Source: a candidate division WOR-3 bacterium
Lineage (GTDB): Bacteria > Hydrothermota > Hydrothermia > Hydrothermales > Hydrothermaceae
Reading direction: 5' to 3'
Assembly: GCA_039803745.1 (NCBI GenBank)
Contig: JBDRZD010000023.1
Coordinates: forward strand, 1-27,653
DNA length: 27,653 nt
Positions 11,646-25,378 of the stretch are shown here, one piece after another. Made by a program: the position numbers and the translations under genes. Within the stretch, counting starts at the first letter, position 1. Each line of letters starts with the position of its first letter. Below the pieces are notes generated by a model. That model searched no databases, had not been told where the DNA came from, and saw only the letters and a program-made list of their open reading frames with translations.

Positions 11646-12493
11646 AAGGAATTATAAGAAATTATCCGTTAAAGAGATTAACCACAATAAGAGTAGGAGG
11701 AAATGCTCTTTTCTTTTTTGCACCAGAAAGAATGGAAGAAATTTTTGAAGCAATTAATTTTTCAGAGAAAAATTCAATCCCAATTTTTATACTCGGCGGT
11801 GGCTCAAATTGCATCTTTGGTGACGGAATAATAGAAAGACTTGCAATTTCAATGAAAAATCTTAGAGAAATAAAAATAGAGGGAAATAAACTAATTGCGC
11901 AAGCCGGAGTAAAAACGCAGGAAATTCTTAAAGAATGTGAGGATAAAAATCTTTCAGGACTTGAATTCATAGCAGGTGTTCCTGCAACAGTTGGAGGAAT
12001 GATTTACATGAATTTTGGAAGTATGGGAAAAGAAATCTGTGAATATTTAAAAAGAGTGGTAATAATAAAGGAAAGAGAAATAAAAACTCTGGAAAGGAAT
12101 GAATTAAAATTCTCTTACAGGAAAGGAATTCAGGATGGGATAATAATAGAAGCAGAATTTGAACTTGAAATGAAGGATAAGAAAGAGATAAAAGAGGCTA
12201 AAAGAAGAGTAATTTTTATGAGAAAAGAAAAACAACCCATCGATAAAAAAACAGCAGGATGCATATTCAAAAATCCACCAGGAAATTTTGCAGGGAAATT
12301 AATTGAAGAGGCAGGGTGCAAAGGAAAAAGAATAGGAGATGCAATGGTGTCATTAAAACATGCAAATTTTATAGAGAACATGGGAAATGCAAAATTTGAA
12401 GATGTCAAAAATTTAATAGAATATATAAAAGAAAGGGTTTATAAAAAATTTGGAATAAATCTTGAGGAGGAGGTAATAATAATTGAAAAATAA
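11642..12493 (+). CDS. murB: UDP-N-acetylenolpyruvoylglucosamine reductase MurB
   Basis: GGGSN, GLEF..GVPATVGG..MN.G, FSYR, QP..AGCIFKNP, KHANF and LEEEV. Confidence 0.96.
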   Translation: MKGIIRNYPLKRLTTIRVGGNALFFFAPERMEEIFEAINFSEKNSIPIFILGGGSNCIFGDGIIERLAISMKNLREIKIEGNKLIAQAGVKTQEILKECEDKNLSGLEFIAGVPATVGGMIYMNFGSMGKEICEYLKRVVIIKEREIKTLERNELKFSYRKGIQDGIIIEAEFELEMKDKKEIKEAKRRVIFMRKEKQPIDKKTAGCIFKNPPGNFAGKLIEEAGCKGKRIGDAMVSLKHANFIENMGNAKFEDVKNLIEYIKERVYKKFGINLEEEVIIIEK

Positions 12494-12971
12494 AAGAAGA
12501 AAGAAAACAAATAAGAAATTTTTAATACTATTCTTGCTAATATTTTTATTTGCCTTCTTATTTAAAAATAAAGTAACAAATCTCGGAGCAAAAAAGGAAT
12601 ATTTTGAACCTATATGTAAGTTAAATGAGAACATTTTTGTTAATGAGGAAGCAAAACTGATGAAAATGTATAAAAACTTGAATTTACCTTATGTAAAGGG
12701 TAATATAGAAATAGTTTTTAATAAGAAAATATCCTCTTTATATCCATGCATAGAAATCTTAAAAATAATTAAAAAAGATTTTCCGGAATTTTTTGATTCA
12801 ATAGAATGTATCAATTTAGATAATTATAAAATAATCTTTAAAAATAAAAAGGTGGTAACTCTTGGACTCGGTAATTTTGAAGAAAAACTCTTTTTTTTAT
12901 TTGAAAATTATAAGTATATCAAGAATGAAATTGATTTGAAATTTTTAAGTTTTAAAAAAAAGGAGGATTGA
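12483..12971 (+). CDS. Short FtsQ/DivIB-like bitopic membrane protein
   Basis: Basic N-terminus and a single TM helix, C-terminal IDLKF resembling the FtsQ IDLR motif, located between murB and ftsA. TTG start with GAGGAGG upstream; only 162 aa. Confidence 0.6.
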   Translation: MKNKRRKKTNKKFLILFLLIFLFAFLFKNKVTNLGAKKEYFEPICKLNENIFVNEEAKLMKMYKNLNLPYVKGNIEIVFNKKISSLYPCIEILKIIKKDFPEFFDSIECINLDNYKIIFKNKKVVTLGLGNFEEKLFFLFENYKYIKNEIDLKFLSFKKKED

Positions 12972-14204: not shown

Positions 14205-15302
14205 ATGATAAAATTTGCTGAAAGCCCTTATAAGGGAATAACAATAAAAGTAATAGGTATAGGAGGAGGCGGCTCCAATGCAGTATCTTATATGAGCAGA
14301 AATAATATAAAAAATATCGTCACGATCGCATTAAATACTGATGCCCAACATCTTGCAAGGGTTAATGCTGATGAAAAAATAGTAATTGGTAAAAAAATTA
14401 CAGGAGGGCTTGGAGCAGGTGGAGATCCTCAAATAGGGAAAAGGGCTATGGAAGAATCTCTTGAAGAAATTAAGGAAAAAATAAGGGATGCCGATCTTGT
14501 TTTTTTAACAGCTGGACTTGGTGGCGGAACCGGAACCGGTGGAATTCCTGTACTTGCAAACGCAATTAAGGAAATGGGAATACTTACAGTAGGAGTTGTA
14601 ACAAAACCTTTCAGAGAAGAAGGCAAAAAAAAGATGGAAAAAGCAGAAAGAGCCCTCCTTGAACTAAAAGATAAAGTAAATACATTGCTTATTATACCTA
14701 ATGATAAACTTCTTCAAAGCGATCAAAAGATATTATTCAAAACAGCTCTTGAGAAGGCAGACGAAGTTCTCTACAGAGCAGTAAAAGGAATCGTGAACAT
14801 AATTCAAGAACCAGGATATATAAATGTTGATTTTGCTGATGTAAAAAATATACTCACACTTGGAGGAAGAGCAATAATAGGAATGGGAGAAGGAAAAGGA
14901 GAGAAAAGGGGAATTGAAGCAATAAGAAGTGCAATTTCCTCGCCACTTTTAGAAGAAGTCGATGTGAAAAAGTCCAAAGGTATACTCATAAACATAAGAG
15001 GAAAAGATATAAGAACAGAAGAAATCCAAGAGATTTTTGGATATCTTGCTTCAGAGATAAATCAAAAAGAAGATATAGAAACAATATTGGGAGTTGATAT
15101 TACCGATGAAGTTTCTGAAGGAACAGTGGAAATTACTTTAATAGCAGCCGGTATAGAAGATGAAAGGATAAGGAAAAAGGAACTCGAACCTTTCCCTGAA
15201 AGAACTTCTGAAGAAGAAATTATGGTTCCAACATTTTTAAGAAAATTCCGTAAAGAAGATAAAAAATTTGAGTATCCGGAAAACGGGGATACAGAAATTT
15301 AA
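14205..15302 (+). CDS. ftsZ: Cell division protein FtsZ
   Basis: GIGGGGSNA, NTDAQ, GLGAGG.P, GGGTGTG tubulin signature, INVDFADV and C-terminal VPTFLRK. AGGAGG ribosome-binding site. Confidence 0.98.
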   Translation: MIKFAESPYKGITIKVIGIGGGGSNAVSYMSRNNIKNIVTIALNTDAQHLARVNADEKIVIGKKITGGLGAGGDPQIGKRAMEESLEEIKEKIRDADLVFLTAGLGGGTGTGGIPVLANAIKEMGILTVGVVTKPFREEGKKKMEKAERALLELKDKVNTLLIIPNDKLLQSDQKILFKTALEKADEVLYRAVKGIVNIIQEPGYINVDFADVKNILTLGGRAIIGMGEGKGEKRGIEAIRSAISSPLLEEVDVKKSKGILINIRGKDIRTEEIQEIFGYLASEINQKEDIETILGVDITDEVSEGTVEITLIAAGIEDERIRKKELEPFPERTSEEEIMVPTFLRKFRKEDKKFEYPENGDTEI

Positions 15303-17095
15303 AAATTAATAAAAACAGTGAGCATTTCGCCCTCAGAAGAGTTAATTCTTACTTCATTTTGAGAAATTTCTAAATTTTTAATTTCCTTTTCCCCTTTAAA
15401 ATCAAGAAGTTTTAATTCCTTTGGTGGAGTAAGAAAATTTATGCTAAAAGAATTTCCAATAGAGACCCCCCTTAATATAAATTTCTTGGAATCGACCTGC
15501 CTCATTGAGCAGAGAAGAAAAATTCCATCTTTTATTGTAAACATTTTACAAATATTCTTTTCCTTAATCCTAAGAGGTGAATAAATGAAGGGTAAAAATT
15601 TATCCCATATATTTTTTTCATTCTCCGGGAATGGATAAAATACCATTAAAAAGGGACCTTCTTTGAATTTCAGTTCTATTCCCTTATCCCTGATTTTGAA
15701 AAAATAGGGAAATGGAGAAAAAATTGCAAAATCAAAATCTTGGGGATATAAAAGATAAGCAAAGCCTTCTCCTTTTGCATTTAAAATTTTGAATCTGTGA
15801 GAAAGAGTTTTTATAATTTCCCCTTTAAGGTTGACTCTAAAAAGAATTTCACAATTTTTCTCCTTTATATTCCCTTCAAATATCACATAGGGATAGAATT
15901 GAGAAAATATTTTCTTTAATTTTATTTCTCCTTCTGAAAGTTTAAAATTTTCAAAATATATTTTATAATACCTTCCCTTTTCAAAGAAAACTTCTTTTAA
16001 AGAATCCTTTATAATTTTTCCATCCCTTTTTATTTCAATGTTTAAATTTAAAGGAGAGAAATCTTCTCTTTTTTTGTGAACAAAAACAAAATTATTTCCC
16101 ATTCTTCTCACTTTAAAATTCCTTGAAACTTTTAAAAATTCTTTTTCAAAAACAAATTCAAAAGGCTTTAACTCTTTCAGCAAATACCTTTTCCTGTCAG
16201 GAAAGAAAAGAGTGAAGGGATAGGGATTAAAAAGTTTACCATTTTCTACATTTTTAAATCCAATTTTTTCTAAAACTTTATTTAGAATAGCTTTAAATTC
16301 CTTTAAATTTGATTTCTTTTTAGAAAGGGAAGTAAATTCTTCGAAAATGTAATCAATTAAAAGGGAAAGATTTAAAGAGTTTGAAAAGCCGGAATAGGAA
16401 ATTAAATATTCTGTTTTAAATAGCAAATCCTCAATCTTTTTCATATACATTAAATTCTCTCTTTTTTCTTTATATAAAAAATTCTCGGAATTCTCAAAAT
16501 ACTTTTCAGTTAAGTAAAAAAATTCTTCTGGAGAAGAATTAATATAAATTGCCTCATTTTCTTTATCTTCGCAAATTTCTTCCTTAAAAACCATTTTGTA
16601 TGGAGAATTTGTATTTTTTTTGCCTACCGGATTATAAATCATTATCATTCCATTTTTAAGTTTTATTTTTGAAAATTCAGGATAATCTTTATCAAAAAAA
16701 ATAATTTTATTAAAGCCGAGAGCAAAAATTTCTTCAGAAATCTCATTCAGATCAAAAATTTTATCTAAAAAAAATATTTTAATTCCTCCTCCTATTCTTG
16801 AAGAAATTCTTTTTGCCATTTCATAAAATCTTATAAGGGAAACAACCCGCATATTTGAAAAATCAAAATTTTTATAAATTAAAGGAAAAGAAATTTTTTT
16901 TAACTTCCCCCAATTAAAAATTTCCTTTTCAAGAGAGGGATTAAATTTTAAAAGTTCCTCGATTCTCTTTGTATAAAAAGAAAGGAGAAGATGATTTATT
17001 TTATTTTCCCTTATTTTTTCAATAAAAGTACCTATTTTTGAAAAATAATCCACTGAGGATGGTTTTACAAAATAGATTTTGTAAATTGTTTTCAT
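15299..17095 (-). CDS. Hypothetical protein resembling a degenerate GH38 alpha-mannosidase (probable pseudoenzyme)
   Basis: By eye, the N-terminal ~150 aa track the GH38 N-terminal pattern, a central LFNPYPF matches VFNPL.W, and the C-terminal beta region (CSMRQVDSKKFILR...EMLTV) matches SALK.AED...LR...EI.T. The Zn-binding HxD motif is absent. Confidence 0.55.
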   Translation of the reverse strand: MKTIYKIYFVKPSSVDYFSKIGTFIEKIRENKINHLLLSFYTKRIEELLKFNPSLEKEIFNWGKLKKISFPLIYKNFDFSNMRVVSLIRFYEMAKRISSRIGGGIKIFFLDKIFDLNEISEEIFALGFNKIIFFDKDYPEFSKIKLKNGMIMIYNPVGKKNTNSPYKMVFKEEICEDKENEAIYINSSPEEFFYLTEKYFENSENFLYKEKRENLMYMKKIEDLLFKTEYLISYSGFSNSLNLSLLIDYIFEEFTSLSKKKSNLKEFKAILNKVLEKIGFKNVENGKLFNPYPFTLFFPDRKRYLLKELKPFEFVFEKEFLKVSRNFKVRRMGNNFVFVHKKREDFSPLNLNIEIKRDGKIIKDSLKEVFFEKGRYYKIYFENFKLSEGEIKLKKIFSQFYPYVIFEGNIKEKNCEILFRVNLKGEIIKTLSHRFKILNAKGEGFAYLLYPQDFDFAIFSPFPYFFKIRDKGIELKFKEGPFLMVFYPFPENEKNIWDKFLPFIYSPLRIKEKNICKMFTIKDGIFLLCSMRQVDSKKFILRGVSIGNSFSINFLTPPKELKLLDFKGEKEIKNLEISQNEVRINSSEGEMLTVFINF

Positions 17096-17874
17096 ATTAT
17101 TTTTTTAAAAATTTTTTCCTTTATATTTAAAGGTAAATAAAAATTTTCAAAATCAGGATGAATCATCTCAACCTTTCCTAAAATAAGTATTCCATCTTTT
17201 TTTAGAGAAGAAGTTAAATTCTCAAAAACTTTTCTTTGTGCATCTTTTTGCATGTATATTAAAACGTTCCTGCAAAGAATGATATCAAAATCATTATCAA
17301 AAGGCGAAGAGAGAAGATCATGAATTTTGAACTCTATATGTTTTTTAACAAAATCTTTTACTTTAAATTTATTATTTATTTTTTCTATATACTTAATCCT
17401 TAAATAAAAAGGAAAATCTTCAAGTTTCTCTCCTTCAAAAATTCCGTTTTTTGCCATTTCAATAATTTCTGAGTCAAAATCTGTTGCAAATATTTTAAAA
17501 TTTTCAAAACCCTGATCTAAAAAGAGAATTGAAAGCGTGTATGCTTCCTCACCTTGTGCACATCCTGCACTCCATATTTTTATAAAATCTCTATTTTTAA
17601 AATAAGGTAAAATAGTATTTTTAATTGTTTCAAAAACATCCCTGTCTCTAAAAAAAACCGAAACATTTATTCCAATTGTATCTATTAGATTTTGAGATTC
17701 TTTTTCTTCTTTCAAAAGTAAATTGTAATAAGAAGAAAGGGTATGAGAACGGGTTTTTGCCATCCTTATCTTTACCCTTCTTAAAAGATAACTCTCCCTG
17801 TAAGCTGAAAGGTCTATTCCCATTTTTCTTTTAATAAAATTTTTAATAAGTTCAAGGTATCTAAGGTCCTCCAT
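17092..17874 (-). CDS. cheR: Protein-glutamate O-methyltransferase CheR
   Basis: GIDLSAYR...L.RR, INVSVFFRD, IWSAGCAQGEEAYT, ATD, HDLL, FDIILCRNVLIY and GILILGKVE. Confidence 0.93.
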   Translation of the reverse strand: MEDLRYLELIKNFIKRKMGIDLSAYRESYLLRRVKIRMAKTRSHTLSSYYNLLLKEEKESQNLIDTIGINVSVFFRDRDVFETIKNTILPYFKNRDFIKIWSAGCAQGEEAYTLSILFLDQGFENFKIFATDFDSEIIEMAKNGIFEGEKLEDFPFYLRIKYIEKINNKFKVKDFVKKHIEFKIHDLLSSPFDNDFDIILCRNVLIYMQKDAQRKVFENLTSSLKKDGILILGKVEMIHPDFENFYLPLNIKEKIFKKII

Positions 17875-19441
17875 TTTTTAAACTTTTTTCAAGGAGTTCA
17901 AGATTTCTTTTTAAAAGTTTATTTTGAGGCTCGATTTTTTCAGCCTCTTTCCAAAAATTAAGTGCCTTTTCTCTCATACCCTCCCTTAAATAGAGAATCC
18001 CCAGCCTGAAAAAAGACCTAAAATGTTTTGTCCTTTGAATCACTTTTTCATACTGTAAAATAGCATTATGAATATCTTGAACTTGATAATAAGTTTCTGC
18101 CAGTAAAAAATTAAATCTCCATTCGTCAGGATAAAGGGAAAGACCTTTATTTAAAACTTCTATGGCATTTTCATATTTTTTTATAATGTGGAAAATGAAT
18201 CCTTTTAAAATTAATAAGTTCTTATTTTCCGGTTCGGTTTTTTCAATTAAATTTAAAACTTCTTGAGCATTCAAATATTTTTTTTCTTTTATATATATTA
18301 ATGCAAAATATAAAAAGGATGTCTTTAAATCAGGAAAATCCTTTATAACCTTTTTAAAATATTCTTTTGCAACCTGTATATTGCCACTTTCGTATTCAAG
18401 AATTCCTTTTAAAAGTAAAAACTTTTTATCCTTCTCATCCTTTATTTCTTCTAATAACTTATTAGCAGATTCAAAATCCTTTAATTTATAACAGGTAAAA
18501 GCAATATTATGAATTAACTTCTTATTATTTGGAGTAATTTCTTTTGCCTTTTCAAAAAATTTTTTTGCAATTTCATAATTATTTCTATATACTTCAAGAA
18601 TACCCATAAAAAAGTAACCTTCAGAAGAATTAGGTGCCATTTCTATCACTCTTTTAAATTCCCTTTCTGCTTCCTCGAAAAGATTTATTTTTAAAAATGC
18701 CATCCCAAGGTTCAGATGTTCTAATATTTTTTCCTTTTGGGATTCCTTAGGAATTAGAAATGGGGCATGTTTTCTAACAGCCCCTTTTGTAATAAGAGAT
18801 TGTAAAATTTCAGCAGCTTCAATTATTCCAAGTCCGGAAGATTCAATTATTTCTTTTACATTTTTTTCTCCATCTATTTTTTCATAAATTATTTTTTCTT
18901 TTTCATTAAGGGTAAAAACACCTGAATAATTTTTTGTAAGGACCATTTCAAGAGGATAGATTATTTCTTTAACCTTCTCCCATTCATCATACTTTGTAAT
19001 TGATTCTATTAAAAACCTTGAAGGATCTATTTCCACAACAGGTCTTTGTTTGGGATATTCATCAGGAATAAAATTGAAAAAACCCTCTTCCCACAAAATT
19101 GCTTCTCTCAAATATTCCATTATTTCTTTCTCTTTATATTTTTTTAAAATTTCTTCATCAAATCCCATTTCACAAAGAACATAACCTATATTTGGATACC
19201 CCTGATCAAGTAATGAAATTGCTTTTTTGAAAGTTTTTTCATCTATTAAATTATCTTTTAAAAGAAGTTCCCCTAACTTTTCTTTTCGGTTTACCATCAG
19301 TGAATATACTATAATCCCGTCTTTTAAAAATACTTCTAAAAAATCATTACCATTTGTTATTGAAAGTTTACCCGTTTTTTTACCTATATGAAGAAGTTGA
19401 AAAACATCCGTTACAGGAACCTCCTTCAAACTGCCCCTCAT
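17861..19441 (-). CDS. DUF4388 (PatA-N-like) domain protein with an MshEN-like insert, a winged-helix segment and C-terminal TPR repeats
   Basis: MRGSLKE...DVFQLL..GKKTGKL.I...F.DG.I and W.EG.F.F are the DUF4388 pattern. IDGEKNVKEII...L..L...G is wHTH-like, and about 7 TPR-like repeats follow. ATG at 19441 (ATGA overlap with the upstream gene) is preferred to TTG at 19453. Confidence 0.82.
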   Translation of the reverse strand: MRGSLKEVPVTDVFQLLHIGKKTGKLSITNGNDFLEVFLKDGIIVYSLMVNRKEKLGELLLKDNLIDEKTFKKAISLLDQGYPNIGYVLCEMGFDEEILKKYKEKEIMEYLREAILWEEGFFNFIPDEYPKQRPVVEIDPSRFLIESITKYDEWEKVKEIIYPLEMVLTKNYSGVFTLNEKEKIIYEKIDGEKNVKEIIESSGLGIIEAAEILQSLITKGAVRKHAPFLIPKESQKEKILEHLNLGMAFLKINLFEEAEREFKRVIEMAPNSSEGYFFMGILEVYRNNYEIAKKFFEKAKEITPNNKKLIHNIAFTCYKLKDFESANKLLEEIKDEKDKKFLLLKGILEYESGNIQVAKEYFKKVIKDFPDLKTSFLYFALIYIKEKKYLNAQEVLNLIEKTEPENKNLLILKGFIFHIIKKYENAIEVLNKGLSLYPDEWRFNFLLAETYYQVQDIHNAILQYEKVIQRTKHFRSFFRLGILYLREGMREKALNFWKEAEKIEPQNKLLKRNLELLEKSLKNGGP

Positions 19442-21174
19442 ATTTCTTCCCAAATAATTTCTTCAAGATAAATAAAATCAAAAGCAATTTCATCAATTAA
19501 ACTTTTTTCTTCCCTTGGAATCCCTATCTCAAAATCCTCGCATGTAATTTTTTCTTTTGGTAATGAAAGAATTTCATTGAGAAAATTTGTAAGTGCTTTT
19601 AAATCCTCCCATCTCCTTTGAATTATTTTCTGCATTGCATCTTCTTCAATAATTTTGCCTTTTGAAGAAGAATACAAGATTATTATTTTCTCAATAGCAT
19701 CAGGAGTTGGTGAATTTATATAAATTTTCTTTACAGGAATTTCAATATCTATTTCTTCATGGGAACCAACCACAACTTTCTTCCCTTCACTTATCCACTT
19801 TTTTAAAAGTTTTTCCAAATTTTTACGGATTTCTTCAATTTTTAGAAAGGAATGGAGATCGTCTATGAATAAATATTTATACTCGGAAAGAATGGGAAAT
19901 TCTTCAACACCTTTTGAAACAAATTCAAAATTACTTATTATTTCATTTAAAAATATCTTCTCTTTTTCTTTTAAAATTTTAAATCCATAATTAAGTAAAG
20001 AAGTTATGCCATTCCTTCCTTTGCTTATTATAGCAAAAATACCCGGGGGCTCTTTATCCAATCTTTTTAAAAAATCAAAAGCATCTTTATTAAATTCACC
20101 AACAACTATTTCAGGGATTTCTTCTATTTCAACAATTTCTTCTTCCTTTTTCTTTACAAGTTCATCCATCTTTTTTTCAATTTCCTCTATTTTGTCAGGG
20201 TCAAATAACATCCTCTCTATTTCTTCATCGGTTTCACCTATCTCTCCGTATCTTTTTTGAAGCTCAACAAGTTTTTTAATATCTTCAACAAATCTATCGT
20301 ATTCTTTTTTGATAGTTTCAAGAGAAGCATTTCTAAGAGATTCAAGTCTTTTAACTTCAAAGCCTTTCATACTCCATATATATATTTTCTCTTCAAGAAA
20401 TTCTTTTATTTTTTTTGCATCTTCAATTTCTTCTACAAGTTGTGAAATACTTTCTTCAATCTTCTCCTTTAAATCAGGGAAAATAACTTCTTCATACTGC
20501 CCTCTTTGGAAAGTATAGGCTATATCCCGATAATCAATATTTCCTTTTTTCACAATATTTAAAAGAATAAGTTTATTAACTATGCCTTCTATTTTCCTTA
20601 AATTTATTTTCTCTGAAACTCTTATAATCTTTATTAAATTCTCATCAATTTCTACTCCTTTTTTTATTAATTTAAATTTTATAATTTCGTAAACTTCATT
20701 TAGATCAGGTGGTAAAATTCCAACTTCTATCCCGCTTGATAATCTTGACTTCAAAAGTAATATAAGTTCTTTAAAATTTTCAATCTCATGAAGAGATGAT
20801 AAAATAAATTGGTTATCCTGAGCAAGAAAGGTTTCAAAGTTAATCAAAAAGACCTTCTGAATTTCTTCGCCCATTTTAATAAAATCATGAAAATCATCAA
20901 CTATTATCCATGAATTCTTTGGAATTTTACGGGAAGAAATCATTTCTTGAAATTCAAAAGGATTAAGAAATAAAACATTTTCATTTTTTTGAATAAGATA
21001 ATTTGCACAGGCTGATAAAATATGTGTTTTACCCAAACCTTCTTCTCCATATATGTATAAAGGATTGAACATACCCTTGTTTTTCAAAACTGCGTCACAG
21101 GCAGCATAAACAAGCCTCACACCTTCATATACATAAAAATTTTCAAAAGAATATTTTGGATTTGGATTAGCCAT
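19438..21174 (-). CDS. DnaA/Hda-family protein with tandem AAA+ modules (not the replication initiator)
   Basis: N-terminal KYSFENF, FNPLYIYGEEGLGKTH (Walker A), IIVDD (Walker B), LKSRLSSG (box VII) and NLRKIEG (sensor 2). An acidic helical linker follows, then a second degenerate module (VVGEFN..A, SKGRNGITSLL, YLFIDDLH). No DnaA domain I or domain IV. Confidence 0.85.
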   Translation of the reverse strand: MANPNPKYSFENFYVYEGVRLVYAACDAVLKNKGMFNPLYIYGEEGLGKTHILSACANYLIQKNENVLFLNPFEFQEMISSRKIPKNSWIIVDDFHDFIKMGEEIQKVFLINFETFLAQDNQFILSSLHEIENFKELILLLKSRLSSGIEVGILPPDLNEVYEIIKFKLIKKGVEIDENLIKIIRVSEKINLRKIEGIVNKLILLNIVKKGNIDYRDIAYTFQRGQYEEVIFPDLKEKIEESISQLVEEIEDAKKIKEFLEEKIYIWSMKGFEVKRLESLRNASLETIKKEYDRFVEDIKKLVELQKRYGEIGETDEEIERMLFDPDKIEEIEKKMDELVKKKEEEIVEIEEIPEIVVGEFNKDAFDFLKRLDKEPPGIFAIISKGRNGITSLLNYGFKILKEKEKIFLNEIISNFEFVSKGVEEFPILSEYKYLFIDDLHSFLKIEEIRKNLEKLLKKWISEGKKVVVGSHEEIDIEIPVKKIYINSPTPDAIEKIIILYSSSKGKIIEEDAMQKIIQRRWEDLKALTNFLNEILSLPKEKITCEDFEIGIPREEKSLIDEIAFDFIYLEEIIWEEI

Positions 21175-21571
21175 ATATCTCTTTTAAAACTTCATTAAAT
21201 TTTTTAAAAAACCTTTTTGCCTGCGTATCAACTATACCAAGAATTGTCCTGTCATCAAAAAAGGCTGCAAGAAAGAAATCCCCCTCTAAAAGTATATAAT
21301 ATATATTCCATTTTTTTCCTTCCTGGTAAAAAACTCTAAAACCTCTTTCCCCCACAATTCTTGCCAGTTCCTTTGTGCTCTGAAATATACCTGCACATAG
21401 GGCAGAAACAGCAAGCAGAGTGAATGTATCTTTAAATCCTGAAGATGCAATCAATTGACCACTTAATGTGCTTAACATAGCAGAATATACACCCGCTCTT
21501 AATGTAAATTCCTCTATCATATTTTGAATTTTTTCTATTTCTTTTTCTTTTAATATTAATGTATCCCACAT
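21167..21571 (-). CDS. Roadblock/LC7 (MglB-like) protein
   Basis: 134 aa with AML...SGQLIA..G, SALCAGIFQSTKELARIVGE..F...YQEG...IY and F.DRTILG, which is the MglB-like pattern. Confidence 0.85.
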   Translation of the reverse strand: MWDTLILKEKEIEKIQNMIEEFTLRAGVYSAMLSTLSGQLIASSGFKDTFTLLAVSALCAGIFQSTKELARIVGERGFRVFYQEGKKWNIYYILLEGDFFLAAFFDDRTILGIVDTQAKRFFKKFNEVLKEIYG

Positions 21572-21583
21572 TTTTTAAATATT

Positions 21584-21612
21584 ATTATAACTCACAAATG
21601 AGTTTAAATCAA
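21584..21612 (-). promoter_or_regulatory. sigma70-type promoter of the roadblock operon with an inverted repeat in its spacer
   Basis: Minus-strand TTGATT (21612-21607), 17 bp, TATAAT (21589-21584). The inverted repeat AACTCA-caaa-TGAGTT occupies 21589-21604. Confidence 0.65.
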
Positions 21613-23707: not shown

Positions 23708-25378
23708 TTATTCCTCCTCTAACATTGTTATAATTCCTCTTGGACATTCTTTTGCACATATTCCACAACCCTTACAATAATCATAATCAACTTCAGGTTT
23801 TTCATTTATCCATAATATTGCTGCATCAGGACAATAGGAATAACATATTCCACAGGAATTACACACCCCACAGGAAAAACATCTTAAAACTTCTTCAAGT
23901 GCCTCTTCTTTTGTAAATCCAGGGTTTTCTTCTACCTCAAGGGATTTTATTCTTTCAGAAGGTGATAGTTCTTTTGGCCTTAATGCATTTTTCTTTTCAA
24001 AATATTCCATTTGAATTTGCATAAAGGAAACTGTTTTTTCTGGAGGCTCTACTTTTAAAACCTCTTCGCCTTTTAAATATCTCTCTATTGCCTCTGCACT
24101 TTTCCTTCCCCATCCAAAGGCTTCAACAACAGTAGAAGGTCCTTGAACAAAATCGCCTCCTGCAAAAACCCCGGGGATTTTTGTTGCACCAGTCCTTTTA
24201 TCTGCATATACCCATCCATCCTCTCCGAGAATTTCAGGAGGAACACATGTTCTATCACTTTCTTCACCTATTGCAGTTATAACTGCATCAAAAATTTCGT
24301 CCTCTTCAGAACCTTCAATTGGGACAGGTCTTCTTCTTCCTGATTTATCGGGCTCACCAAGTTTCATCTTTATATTTGTTAAAATTATTTTATCATTTTC
24401 CTTTCTTGCTTTTACAGGTAATGTCAAAAATCTAAACTCTATTCCATCTTCCTTTGCCTTTTCTATTTCTTCTTTTAATGCAGGCATTTCATTTTCAGTT
24501 CTTCTATAAAGTAAAACAGGCTTTGCTCCCATCCTTAAAAGTGTTCTTATAACATCCATTGCAACATTGCCACCACCAACAACTGCAACTTTTTTACCAG
24601 GCGGCTCCCTTTTCCCAAGAGAAACCTCTTTTAAAAATTCAGAACCTGAAATAAAATTCTCCTCCCCTTCTATTCCCATTTTCTTTTCTACATGAGCACC
24701 TATTCCTATAAATATTGCATCAAAATCCTTTTTTAAATCATAAACATTTATATCTTTACCAAGTTCTTTTTTAAATTCAAATTCAATGCCCATCTCTATA
24801 AGTATTTCAATTTCTTTATCAAGGATTTTTTTTGGCAATCTATATTCAGGAATTCCGTATCTTAAAATTCCTCCTGCCTTTTCTTCTTTTTCAAAAATTA
24901 TAACCTTATAACCCATTTTCCTTAAATAAAAGGCACAGGAAAGACCAGCAGGACCTGCACCGATAATTGCTATCCTTTTATCTTTTTCTTCTTTTGGCTT
25001 TTGCTCAATTTTATATGGCAAATATAAATCACCAACAACCCTTTCAATCTCTCTTATTGATATCCTCTCATCAAATTTCCTTCTATTGCAAGCAGTCTGA
25101 CAAAAAGCAGGACAAACTCTTCCTGTTATTGAAGGAAATGGATTGTGTAAAGTTAAAATCCTTCCAGCCTCTTTTATATTCTCATCAATAAAAAAATTGA
25201 AATATTCAGGAATTAAAGTATTTGTTGGACATGCTTTTGAACATGGAGCAGATTTATTTTTTATCAGAGGTCTTAAATTTCTCCAACTTCCTGTTTTATT
25301 ATGCCTTGTTGTTGCTGTTGAAATTGGTATTTCAGGATAATCTTTGAATTTTTCAAATTTAATTTTTTCTTCATTCAT
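23708..25378 (-). CDS. PorD-like ferredoxin (delta) subunit fused with an internal GltD/NfnB-like FAD/NAD(P)H oxidoreductase
   Basis: N-terminal PorD motif KTGSWR..RP. GltD-like core: PC..ACP, NPFP..TGRVCP..C...C.R, IIGAGPAG, YGIPEYRLP, VVGGGNVAMD, YRRT and FAGGD. C-terminal RCFSCG followed by two CxxCxxCxxxCP motifs (DYDYCKGCGICAKECP). Confidence 0.88.
   Translation of the reverse strand: MNEEKIKFEKFKDYPEIPISTATTRHNKTGSWRNLRPLIKNKSAPCSKACPTNTLIPEYFNFFIDENIKEAGRILTLHNPFPSITGRVCPAFCQTACNRRKFDERISIREIERVVGDLYLPYKIEQKPKEEKDKRIAIIGAGPAGLSCAFYLRKMGYKVIIFEKEEKAGGILRYGIPEYRLPKKILDKEIEILIEMGIEFEFKKELGKDINVYDLKKDFDAIFIGIGAHVEKKMGIEGEENFISGSEFLKEVSLGKREPPGKKVAVVGGGNVAMDVIRTLLRMGAKPVLLYRRTENEMPALKEEIEKAKEDGIEFRFLTLPVKARKENDKIILTNIKMKLGEPDKSGRRRPVPIEGSEEDEIFDAVITAIGEESDRTCVPPEILGEDGWVYADKRTGATKIPGVFAGGDFVQGPSTVVEAFGWGRKSAEAIERYLKGEEVLKVEPPEKTVSFMQIQMEYFEKKNALRPKELSPSERIKSLEVEENPGFTKEEALEEVLRCFSCGVCNSCGICYSYCPDAAILWINEKPEVDYDYCKGCGICAKECPRGIITMLEEE

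Follow-up and report, generated by a model that had tools for sequence, protein, structure and literature searches.

Organization of the gene cluster

The DNA analyzed here, referred to as the window, is the complete 27,653-nucleotide (nt) contig JBDRZD010000023.1 (contig C23) of a candidate division WOR-3 bacterium, whose assembly (GCA_039803745.1) comprises 1.67 Mb in 100 contigs, has a G+C content of 29.7% and is 93.5% complete. Near-identical DNA was found only in hot-spring metagenome runs, all of DNA, with no RNA run containing the stretch among those listed. The plus strand of the window carries dcw division genes as far as ftsA and ftsZ. On the minus strand, an operon for a por-type 2-oxoacid:ferredoxin oxidoreductase (25942-21615) is followed, after a gap of 43 nt, by the five-gene cluster studied here, which codes for a Roadblock protein, a DnaA-like ATPase, a PATAN-TPR protein, a CheR methyltransferase and a protein of the GH38 fold. 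The features of the cluster, with protein lengths in amino acids (aa), are the following.

21584-21612, minus strand: sigma-70-like motif TTGATT-17-TATAAT in the 43-nt gap after porB, matching at 10 of 12 positions; putative
21167-21571, minus strand: MglB-like Roadblock/LC7 protein, 134 aa (Pfam Robl_LC7, PF03259, 27.3 bits, cut-off 23)
19438-21174, minus strand: tandem DnaA-domain-III ATPase, 578 aa (Pfam Bac_DnaA, PF00308, E = 7.9e-21, 75 bits)
17861-19441, minus strand: PATAN(DUF4388)-TPR scaffold protein, 526 aa from ATG 19441 or 530 aa from TTG 19453 (DUF4388, PF14332, E = 2.5e-21, 76.4 bits, cut-off 25; TPR_2, E = 3.1e-29)
17092-17874, minus strand: CheR-type protein-glutamate O-methyltransferase, 260 aa (CheR, PF01739, E = 5e-50, 170 bits; all-alpha CheR_N, PF03705, E = 8.2e-13)
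15299-17095, minus strand: GH38-fold protein, 598 aa, cytoplasmic by sequence (AlphaFold2 (AF2) model and Foldseek)

An initial annotation had described five minus-strand genes, each overlapping the next, behind a promoter of their own. All five open reading frames (ORFs) exist, and the overlaps of 8 nt (21167-21174), 4 nt (19438-19441), 14 nt (17861-17874) and 4 nt (17092-17095) are as described, the second on condition that the PATAN-TPR gene starts with the ATG at 19441. With the TTG at 19453, the start given by the ORF tool, this overlap would be 16 nt. The MRGSLKE N-termini of orthologous PATAN-TPR proteins favor the ATG. At the other end of the cluster, the 3′ end of ftsZ lies 4 nt inside the gene of the 598-aa protein. 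The promoter fared less well. The motif itself is present, but the region contains 57 sigma-70-like motifs compared to 51.3 ± 6.6 in shuffled sequences, which is no enrichment in this A+T-rich stretch, and the Roadblock gene of the sister genome G001 starts only 2 nt after porB. An independent promoter is therefore not established.

Conservation of the cluster

The same five genes in the same order were found in two further genomes of the genus (G001 and G003) and in five genomes of a second family, f2 (G005-G009). Their flanks differ; in f2, the neighbors are a divergent gdh gene and an M28 peptidase gene. Genome G004 contained no full-length relative of the ATPase. Conserved synteny indicates that a gene arrangement is more than chance, and because the five-gene order is kept between other flanks in f2, the module is conserved and its adjacency to ftsZ and por is incidental. 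The convergence on ftsZ, which had suggested a tie to cell polarity or the cell cycle, is not retained and hence supports no cell-cycle link.

A fuller form of the cluster is present in a distant relative (locus L075 of genome G061), in the order pilT ... mglA-ATPase-PATAN_TPR-CheR-CheD-CheB-TPR-AAA22-CheW-MCP-CheW, with both P-loops of the ATPase intact (MCP, methyl-accepting chemotaxis protein). Strict patterns taken from an alignment recovered only three loci; the wider survey consisted of a genome search and a metagenome scan. In a sample of 150 genomes from the phylum of G061, which includes the order of the window organism (the contigs of G005-G009 being repeated in it), an ATPase homologue with E ≤ 1e-25 was detected in 62 genomes. 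Twenty loci were taken from the matching genomes. PATAN_TPR lies directly downstream of the ATPase in 18 of these and CheR comes next in 17. The position directly upstream of the ATPase is occupied by MglA in 12 loci and by Roadblock in four, one of which has MglA before Roadblock, while the remaining four have neither.

The metagenome scan yielded 57 loci on contigs without taxon labels, some of them duplicates, and 48 had a labeled ATPase ORF. Upstream of the ATPase, Roadblock was found in 27 of the 48 (in nine with MglA before it), MglA in 14, the contig edge in four and another gene in three. If loci with a contig end before the gene in question are set aside, PATAN follows the ATPase in 41 of 46 and CheR follows PATAN in 37 of 41. 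The position of a DnaA-like gene directly behind a Roadblock gene, noted initially for the window, thus recurs in both sets of loci, and the ATPase-PATAN-TPR-CheR core, after which CheD-CheB-TPR normally come, is nearly invariant across the phylum and in metagenomes. Clusters of the Roadblock type are preceded by housekeeping genes (recR, yajC, def, fmt and rsmB). At the level of whole genomes, a Roadblock protein is encoded in all 62 ATPase-positive genomes and in 31 of the 88 others; for MglA, the corresponding numbers are 61 of 62 and 37 of 88.

Genomes with clusters of the MglA type (L075, L120-L125, L136 and others) usually have two MglA paralogues. One resides in the cluster without an adjacent MglB and the second belongs to a canonical mglB-mglA pair elsewhere, as on contigs C19 and C9 of G061. 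It seems that the MglA of the cluster in some lineages is replaced by the Roadblock protein of the cluster in others, and vice versa.

A tandem DnaA-like ATPase with a signature middle domain

Residues 1-223 of the 578-aa protein form an AAA+ domain, in which Walker A (GLGKTH), Walker B (VDD), box VII (SR) and box VIII (NLRKIEG) are all intact. The AF2 model (pLDDT 78.4) matched Aquifex aeolicus DnaA (3r8f) in Foldseek with an E-value of 3.8e-14, 28-30% identity and a root mean square deviation (rmsd) of about 3 Å. The domain is followed by a conserved helical middle domain of about 110 residues (approximately 233-343), for which there is no Pfam model, and by a degenerate second P-loop domain of the DnaA type (approximately 360-548; GRNGITS, IDD), which in the lineage of the window lacks the Walker A lysine, box VII and the sensor-2 arginine. 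Comparison of the N- and C-terminal domains by hhalign gave a probability of 99.5% and an E-value of 4e-22, which bears out the tandem architecture proposed for this protein. It ends in an acidic-hydrophobic tail, IIWEEI.

The protein shares with DnaA and Hda the domain III fold, Walker A and B and the arginines of boxes VII and VIII, all within residues 1-223. It differs from them in lacking domains I, II and IV and in having a degenerate second domain III and a family-specific helical middle domain. The scores against the NCBIfam models for DnaA (TIGR00362, 122.9 bits) and Hda (TIGR03420, 62.8 bits) were below the cut-offs of 343.9 and 194.8, respectively. No family for the DNA-binding domain IV was among its Pfam matches, the C-terminal half being the second P-loop domain, and at 578 aa it is a tandem rather than a single-domain protein of the Hda kind. 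A true DnaA of 438 aa is encoded on contig C7 of the same genome.

Among orthologues, the intact P-loop site varies: both sites, only the N-terminal or only the C-terminal one may be preserved, and short orthologues consist of the N-terminal and middle domains only. The constant signature in the orthologue alignment is the middle domain with K(I/L)Y(I/V)W(E/K)MKGF ... LFDP. Using one regular expression, an ELIE(E/D)N(Y/F)-like C-terminal tail was found in 36 of 68 ATPase orthologues as compared to 46 of 1078 other ORFs of the same loci. When 1.84 billion representatives were searched with a profile of the middle and C-terminal regions, only 173 proteins reached E ≤ 1e-3. One of these is labeled as an 'AAA family ATPase' of Gemmatimonadota, and others as 'chromosomal replication initiation ATPase DnaA'. 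The ESM Atlas returned no usable match to the middle domain. A published description of this ATPase family or of the cluster was not found in the open literature searched, in agreement with the initial view of the cluster as undescribed. The ATPase family, with its signature helical middle domain outside Pfam and its conserved acidic-aromatic tail, is what stays new at this locus. A complex prediction for two Roadblock copies with the full ATPase scored 0.00 against a mark of 0.32, a result that speaks neither for nor against binding.

Three further observations concern relatives of the ATPase. A paralogue of 607-609 aa has a DnaA-like N-terminal domain fused to an ABC_tran ATPase (PF00005, E = 4e-40) and occurs at L187:9995-11818, L131:9348-11177, L134:1948-3771, L190 and L192 in the context lptC-lptA-like-fusion-rpoN; an LptB-type ATPase seems to have acquired a DnaA-like module here. 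In three long proteins of 1248-1348 aa, the middle domain of about 110 aa forms a tandem repeat, with eight matched stretches in P0026 and P0029 and 11 in P0057. In P0026 and P0029, a single strong DnaA ATPase domain (E about 1e-70) comes after the repeats, and P0057 has no Pfam match at all. Finally, the ATPase gene of G003 (L050, contig C16) is interrupted by one TGA and three TAA codons inside the match, giving two ORFs, possibly by assembly error or decay.

Roadblock, PATAN-TPR and CheR proteins

The 134-aa Roadblock protein scored 32.9 bits against the NCBIfam MglB equivalog NF052242, below its cut-off of 200, and no mglA gene is adjacent to it in the window or was found in the assembly. 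It is 31.6% identical (E = 3e-16) to the canonical 164-aa MglB of G001 and shorter than the canonical MglB proteins of the sister genomes (162-164 aa). Its own orthologues are 39-85% identical to the window protein and share invariant QEG and FDDRT motifs. On these sequence grounds, the window protein is an MglB-like, cluster-specific paralogue. A second Roadblock-like ORF of 119 aa was noticed after ruvA on contig C28 of the same genome (24645-25001; L057:7646-8005). Its PF03259 score of 21.2 bits is below the cut-off and it has no GTPase neighbor.

In the PATAN-TPR protein, the PATAN domain (residues 1-160, approximately) contains an alpha-helical insertion, and about eight TPRs occupy residues 235-525, approximately. 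The insertion closely matches the two-part MshEN motif for cyclic di-GMP (c-di-GMP), as defined in PMC5013675, in many orthologues. That of G061 fits motif I in full and motif II except for P instead of R at position 1. The window protein departs from motif I by K at position 1, N at position 10 and the lack of Q at position 24, and from motif II at several positions; the NCBIfam c-di-GMP motif NF053729 scored 16.3 bits (cut-off 38). The MshEN-like feature looks ancestral and decayed in this protein.

The CheR protein is a standard two-domain CheR with both the S-adenosylmethionine-binding and the N-terminal domain, and it is the sole PF01739 match in the assembly. MCPs, CheB and CheD are encoded in the same genome.

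A GH38 fold without a conserved active site

The last gene of the cluster codes for a 598-aa protein that matched no Pfam family, GH38 included, and no NCBIfam family; a profile search of PDB sequences gave no match at E ≤ 10. The AF2 model is of moderate quality (pLDDT 68.8, pTM 0.71), the N-terminal domain being weak. In Foldseek, this model matched GH38 alpha-mannosidases at all of ranks 1-39, the best being 6lz1 (E = 4e-15, probability 1.00, TMq 0.64). The predicted structure shares with GH38 alpha-mannosidases such as Ams1 (PDB 6lz1) the three-part fold of an alpha/beta N-terminal domain, a helical bundle and C-terminal beta-sandwiches.

GH38 enzymes characteristically possess metal-binding His and Asp residues and a catalytic Asp. 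The 598-aa protein is about half the size of GH38 alpha-mannosidases and lacks a conserved His/Asp set for the metal site or the nucleophile. Its relatives comprise nine proteins found by word index and the 606-aa proteins of f2 (22-25% identity), and in an alignment of 12 family sequences no His or Asp is invariant. Within residues 1-210 of the window's own group, D115 is the sole invariant Asp, no His is invariant, and D115 is replaced by Lys in f2. The model therefore agrees, at the level of the fold, with the 'dead GH38' of the initial annotation.

The gene is confined to the order of the window organism, where it occupies the place that CheD-CheB-TPR have in other lineages (loci L189, L191 and L195 are of this type). 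The orthologue in G001 (L049:8855-10818) is broken into two ORFs, 219 and 435 aa long, for which assembly error or decay is a possible cause.

Chemosensory and type IV pilus genes elsewhere in the genome

The usual partners of Roadblock and CheR proteins had been noted as missing from the cluster. This is correct for the window; it does not hold for the Che proteins of the genome, which are encoded on other contigs. Two to three MCPs are located on C6 and C39, and a core operon CheW-CheY-CheA-CheC/X-TPR(815 aa)-PATAN_TPR(372 aa) on C32. CheB is encoded on C19, CheD on C15, and a TPR(247)-AAA22 pair on C46. Together with the presence of a single CheR, these genes account for the CheR of the window. 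No flagellin was found in the genome, which encodes two PilB-like and two PilT-like type IV pilus ATPases. Directly upstream of the C32 operon (L056:4900-7908), we observed genes for an adenylate/guanylate cyclase-AAA_16-TPR protein of 1002 aa and a HEAT-repeat protein of 898 aa, by which a cyclic-nucleotide signal might enter the same pathway.

MglA is the partner that did not turn up. In G001, in G004 and in all six f2 genomes, mglB-mglA-cinA are located on another contig. Since cinA is missing from the assembly together with mglBA, both an assembly gap and a real loss are possible. A gene on contig C65, matching the DUF4416 gene that precedes mglB in G001, lies 364 nt from the contig end; the tail is non-coding and contains no mglB. 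Absence of mglBA through an assembly gap is plausible.

A trimmed module of a probable chemosensory pathway for type IV pili

On balance, we hold it probable, though by some way short of certain, that the window contains, in a trimmed form particular to its lineage, the conserved module [MglA and/or MglB-like Roadblock]-tandem DnaA-fold ATPase-PATAN-TPR-CheR-CheD-CheB-TPR(-AAA22-CheW-MCP-CheW), often near pilT, and that this module is part of the organism's single chemosensory pathway controlling type IV pili, not flagella. Gene content, synteny, domain anatomy and co-occurrence were observed directly; from them we infer all physical interactions and the pilus output.

CheR, CheD and CheB are the enzymes that adapt MCPs. 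In the proposed pathway, the CheR of the cluster would methylate the MCPs encoded on other contigs and would form the adaptation arm with the dispersed CheB and CheD. The PATAN-TPR protein may serve as adaptor to the pilus motor, by analogy with two known cases. In cyanobacteria, the PATAN domain binds the N-terminal domain of PilB as well as PilC, and alone reverses phototaxis (bioRxiv 10.1101/2021.06.11.447907). For Myxococcus, PMC11580455 describes the TPR protein SgmX as an MglA effector that recruits PilB, and reports that PATAN proteins co-occur with SgmX. The DnaA-derived protein would act as an ATP-dependent scaffold or switch; with at least one intact DnaA-type site including an arginine finger, a DnaA-like head-to-tail assembly is possible. 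Via the Roadblock paralogue, it would be coupled to the MglA/MglB-type polarity GTPase system. The conserved acidic-aromatic tail could be a docking peptide, its candidate targets being the TPR domain or CheR, which the next two genes encode. The GH38-fold pseudoenzyme, which would have taken over the place of CheD-CheB-TPR in this order, is probably a structural partner and not a glycosidase.

The closest known counterpart is the Frz system of Myxococcus xanthus with MglA/MglB(/MglC/RomR) and SgmX. Both bring together enzymes of chemotaxis-type adaptation (CheR, joined in relatives by CheB and CheD), a Ras-like GTPase and its Roadblock-type partners, scaffolds made of TPRs, and the ATPases of type IV pili. 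FrzF itself is a CheR fused to TPRs. In Myxococcus, however, the Frz and Mgl genes do not form one operon and no DnaA-fold ATPase belongs to the module, whereas here the tandem DnaA-domain-III ATPase and the PATAN-TPR fusion are the invariant core. The window cluster also differs from Frz/Mgl in lacking MglA, CheD, CheB, MCP and CheW. As for the genome, all Che parts of a Frz/Mgl-type gene set and PilB/PilT ATPases are present, and MglA and canonical MglB are the members that were not found in the 93.5%-complete assembly, although G001, G004 and all six f2 genomes have them. Cyanobacterial PatA-type (PATAN-REC) regulators of Tax/Pix provide a second parallel, as they likewise place a PATAN domain in a chemosensory gene cluster controlling type IV pili. 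In the protein described here, PATAN is fused to TPRs instead of a receiver domain, so any control would be exerted through protein partners or nucleotide state and not through phosphorylation.

Previous work on MglA genes touches on part of this arrangement. A survey of MglA gene neighborhoods (PMC4316618) presents MglB-type Roadblock proteins as partners of MglA and locates MglA and MglB genes near genes of PATAN proteins; DnaA, CheR and chemotaxis do not occur in its text. The locus is not an ordinary Mgl/Che locus, in that its invariant core of DnaA-fold ATPase, PATAN-TPR and CheR is without a published description in the literature searched.

Several points weigh against assignment to a single chemosensory pathway for pili. 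None of the genome and metagenome clusters examined contains CheA or CheY, so that the tie to the kinase operon depends on there being one Che set in the genome. MglA, canonical MglB and CinA were searched for and not found in the 93.5%-complete assembly. The MshEN-like motif, which suggests a c-di-GMP input in the relatives, is degenerate in the window protein, and no role in pathways of this kind is known for the GH38-fold gene. Co-occurrence counts overstate the support, because kin genomes and duplicate metagenome contigs are not independent. Finally, no tool showed any interaction between the proteins.

Starting from the same module, a more far-reaching proposal can be made, which we advance as a speculation and judge to be rather doubtful. 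The tandem DnaA-fold ATPase might be an unrecognized core part of MglA/MglB polarity switches, a landmark, driven by ATP and assembling itself, through which the cycle of the small GTPase is coupled to chemoreceptor methylation. Its middle domain would bind MglA or the Roadblock dimer, and the ELIE(E/D)N(Y/F) tail would either serve as a tether for CheR, much as the MCP pentapeptide does, or insert into the TPR clamp of the PATAN-TPR protein, the adaptor to PilB and PilC. In the lineage of the window, the dedicated MglA would have been lost, leaving the Roadblock paralogue alone to link the ATPase to the remaining polarity system.

Alternative explanations

A looser association of the genes would make CheR a housekeeping MCP methyltransferase that is merely co-transcribed, the Roadblock-ATPase-PATAN-TPR proteins a pilus or polarity device without a tie to receptor methylation, and the GH38-fold gene a passenger. 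Gene order is evidently fluid in this lineage, as the Che genes are spread over at least six contigs of the genome, and the ATPase and PATAN-TPR genes occur without Che genes in one genome locus (L126) and two metagenome loci (L145 and L185). We nevertheless regard this explanation as unlikely. CheR follows PATAN-TPR in the great majority of genome and metagenome loci (17/20 and 37/41), the latter ranging in GC from 0.29 to 0.58 and having varied flanks. Moreover, stop and start codons overlap at the PATAN-TPR/CheR and CheR/GH38-like junctions, and two families maintain the five-gene order between different flanks.

The initial annotation had favored a free-standing, repurposed switch. In this scheme, the DnaA-like ATPase, on its PATAN-TPR scaffold, would be under the direct control of a Roadblock dimer without MglA, and CheR would methylate a protein of the cluster instead of MCPs. 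Koonin and Aravind reportedly proposed Roadblock-family proteins in 2000 as general NTPase regulators. The unit is indeed conserved and undescribed as far as our literature search went, the Roadblock gene is the direct, overlapping neighbor of the ATPase gene in the window and its direct upstream neighbor in the 27 metagenome and four genome loci mentioned above, MglA was not found in the assembly, and Roadblock is more conserved than the ATPase (39-85% compared to 25-67% identity to the window proteins). An independent switch is still quite improbable. MglA without Roadblock precedes the ATPase in 14 of 48 metagenome and 12 of 20 genome loci, the order mglA-robl-ATPase exists in nine metagenome loci and one genome locus, and sister genomes with a Roadblock-type cluster still carry mglB-mglA elsewhere. 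The only CheR of the genome has two to three MCPs to serve, CheB and CheD are encoded in the same genome, and in fuller clusters an MCP and two CheW genes are part of the same operon. What was proposed as self-contained thus begins with MglA or with MglA and Roadblock and extends into CheD-CheB-TPR in relatives, and has its Che partners on other contigs. To a large extent the locus looks like a fragment of an Mgl/Che locus with partners elsewhere, directly so for CheR and, as seen from the sister genomes, for Roadblock.

A regulator of replication or the cell cycle, with the DnaA-like protein acting on initiation or division in the manner of Hda or DnaA, is very improbable. Residues 1-223 are a good DnaA domain III, as the structural match to A. 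aeolicus DnaA illustrates, a weak Hda match exists, and the convergent ftsZ ends 4 nt inside the last gene; against this, the protein has no domain IV, its DnaA and Hda scores are far under the cut-offs, and a true DnaA is encoded on C7. A role through ftsZ was rejected on synteny, as the ftsZ flank is absent from f2 and from all other loci, where the context is always Mgl/Che/PATAN.

An anti-phage defense system, composed of a STAND-like or AAA ATPase, a TPR sensor and a methyltransferase, hardly merits belief and was rejected as an identity, since the weak PADLOC matches (mad8, 32.1 bits, for the ATPase; mad2, 31.1 bits, for CheR; PDC-M71B, 29.6 bits, for the TPR region), joined by sub-threshold Pfam nSTAND matches, reflect at about 30 bits generic P-loop, SAM-methyltransferase and TPR likeness compared to 170 bits for CheR and 75 bits for DnaA, and since vertical conservation with chemotaxis, MglA and pilT neighbors in 62 of 150 genomes is unlike a defense island.

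Neighboring genes of the window

Two features outside the cluster were recorded. A 162-aa ORF without Pfam match (12483-12971, plus strand) lies between murB and ftsA, the usual place of ftsQ in dcw clusters. In the por operon (23708-25378, minus strand), a protein of 556 aa combines the ferredoxin domain of the delta subunit with an NAD(P)H flavoprotein of the GltD type (NCBIfam PRK12771, 525.9 bits, cut-off 516). This fusion suggests a pyridine-nucleotide-linked 2-oxoacid oxidoreductase.

Implications for polarity control

Databases label proteins of this kind 'chromosomal replication initiation ATPase DnaA' or 'AAA family ATPase', so the cluster matters for annotation as well. The family may extend beyond the phylum, as indicated by the one homologue labeled Gemmatimonadota and by metagenome contigs without taxon labels. 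Little is known about how the poles of type IV pili are set and switched outside Myxococcus. In the cluster, an ATPase derived from DnaA stands between a Ras-like switch, an adaptor to the pilus motor and enzymes that modify chemoreceptors, and this in a phylum in which 62 of the 150 genomes sampled encode the ATPase. If the ATPase truly partners the switch, it would be a new kind of nucleotide-driven component in bacterial polarity control and a clear case of a replication-initiator fold recruited for signaling.

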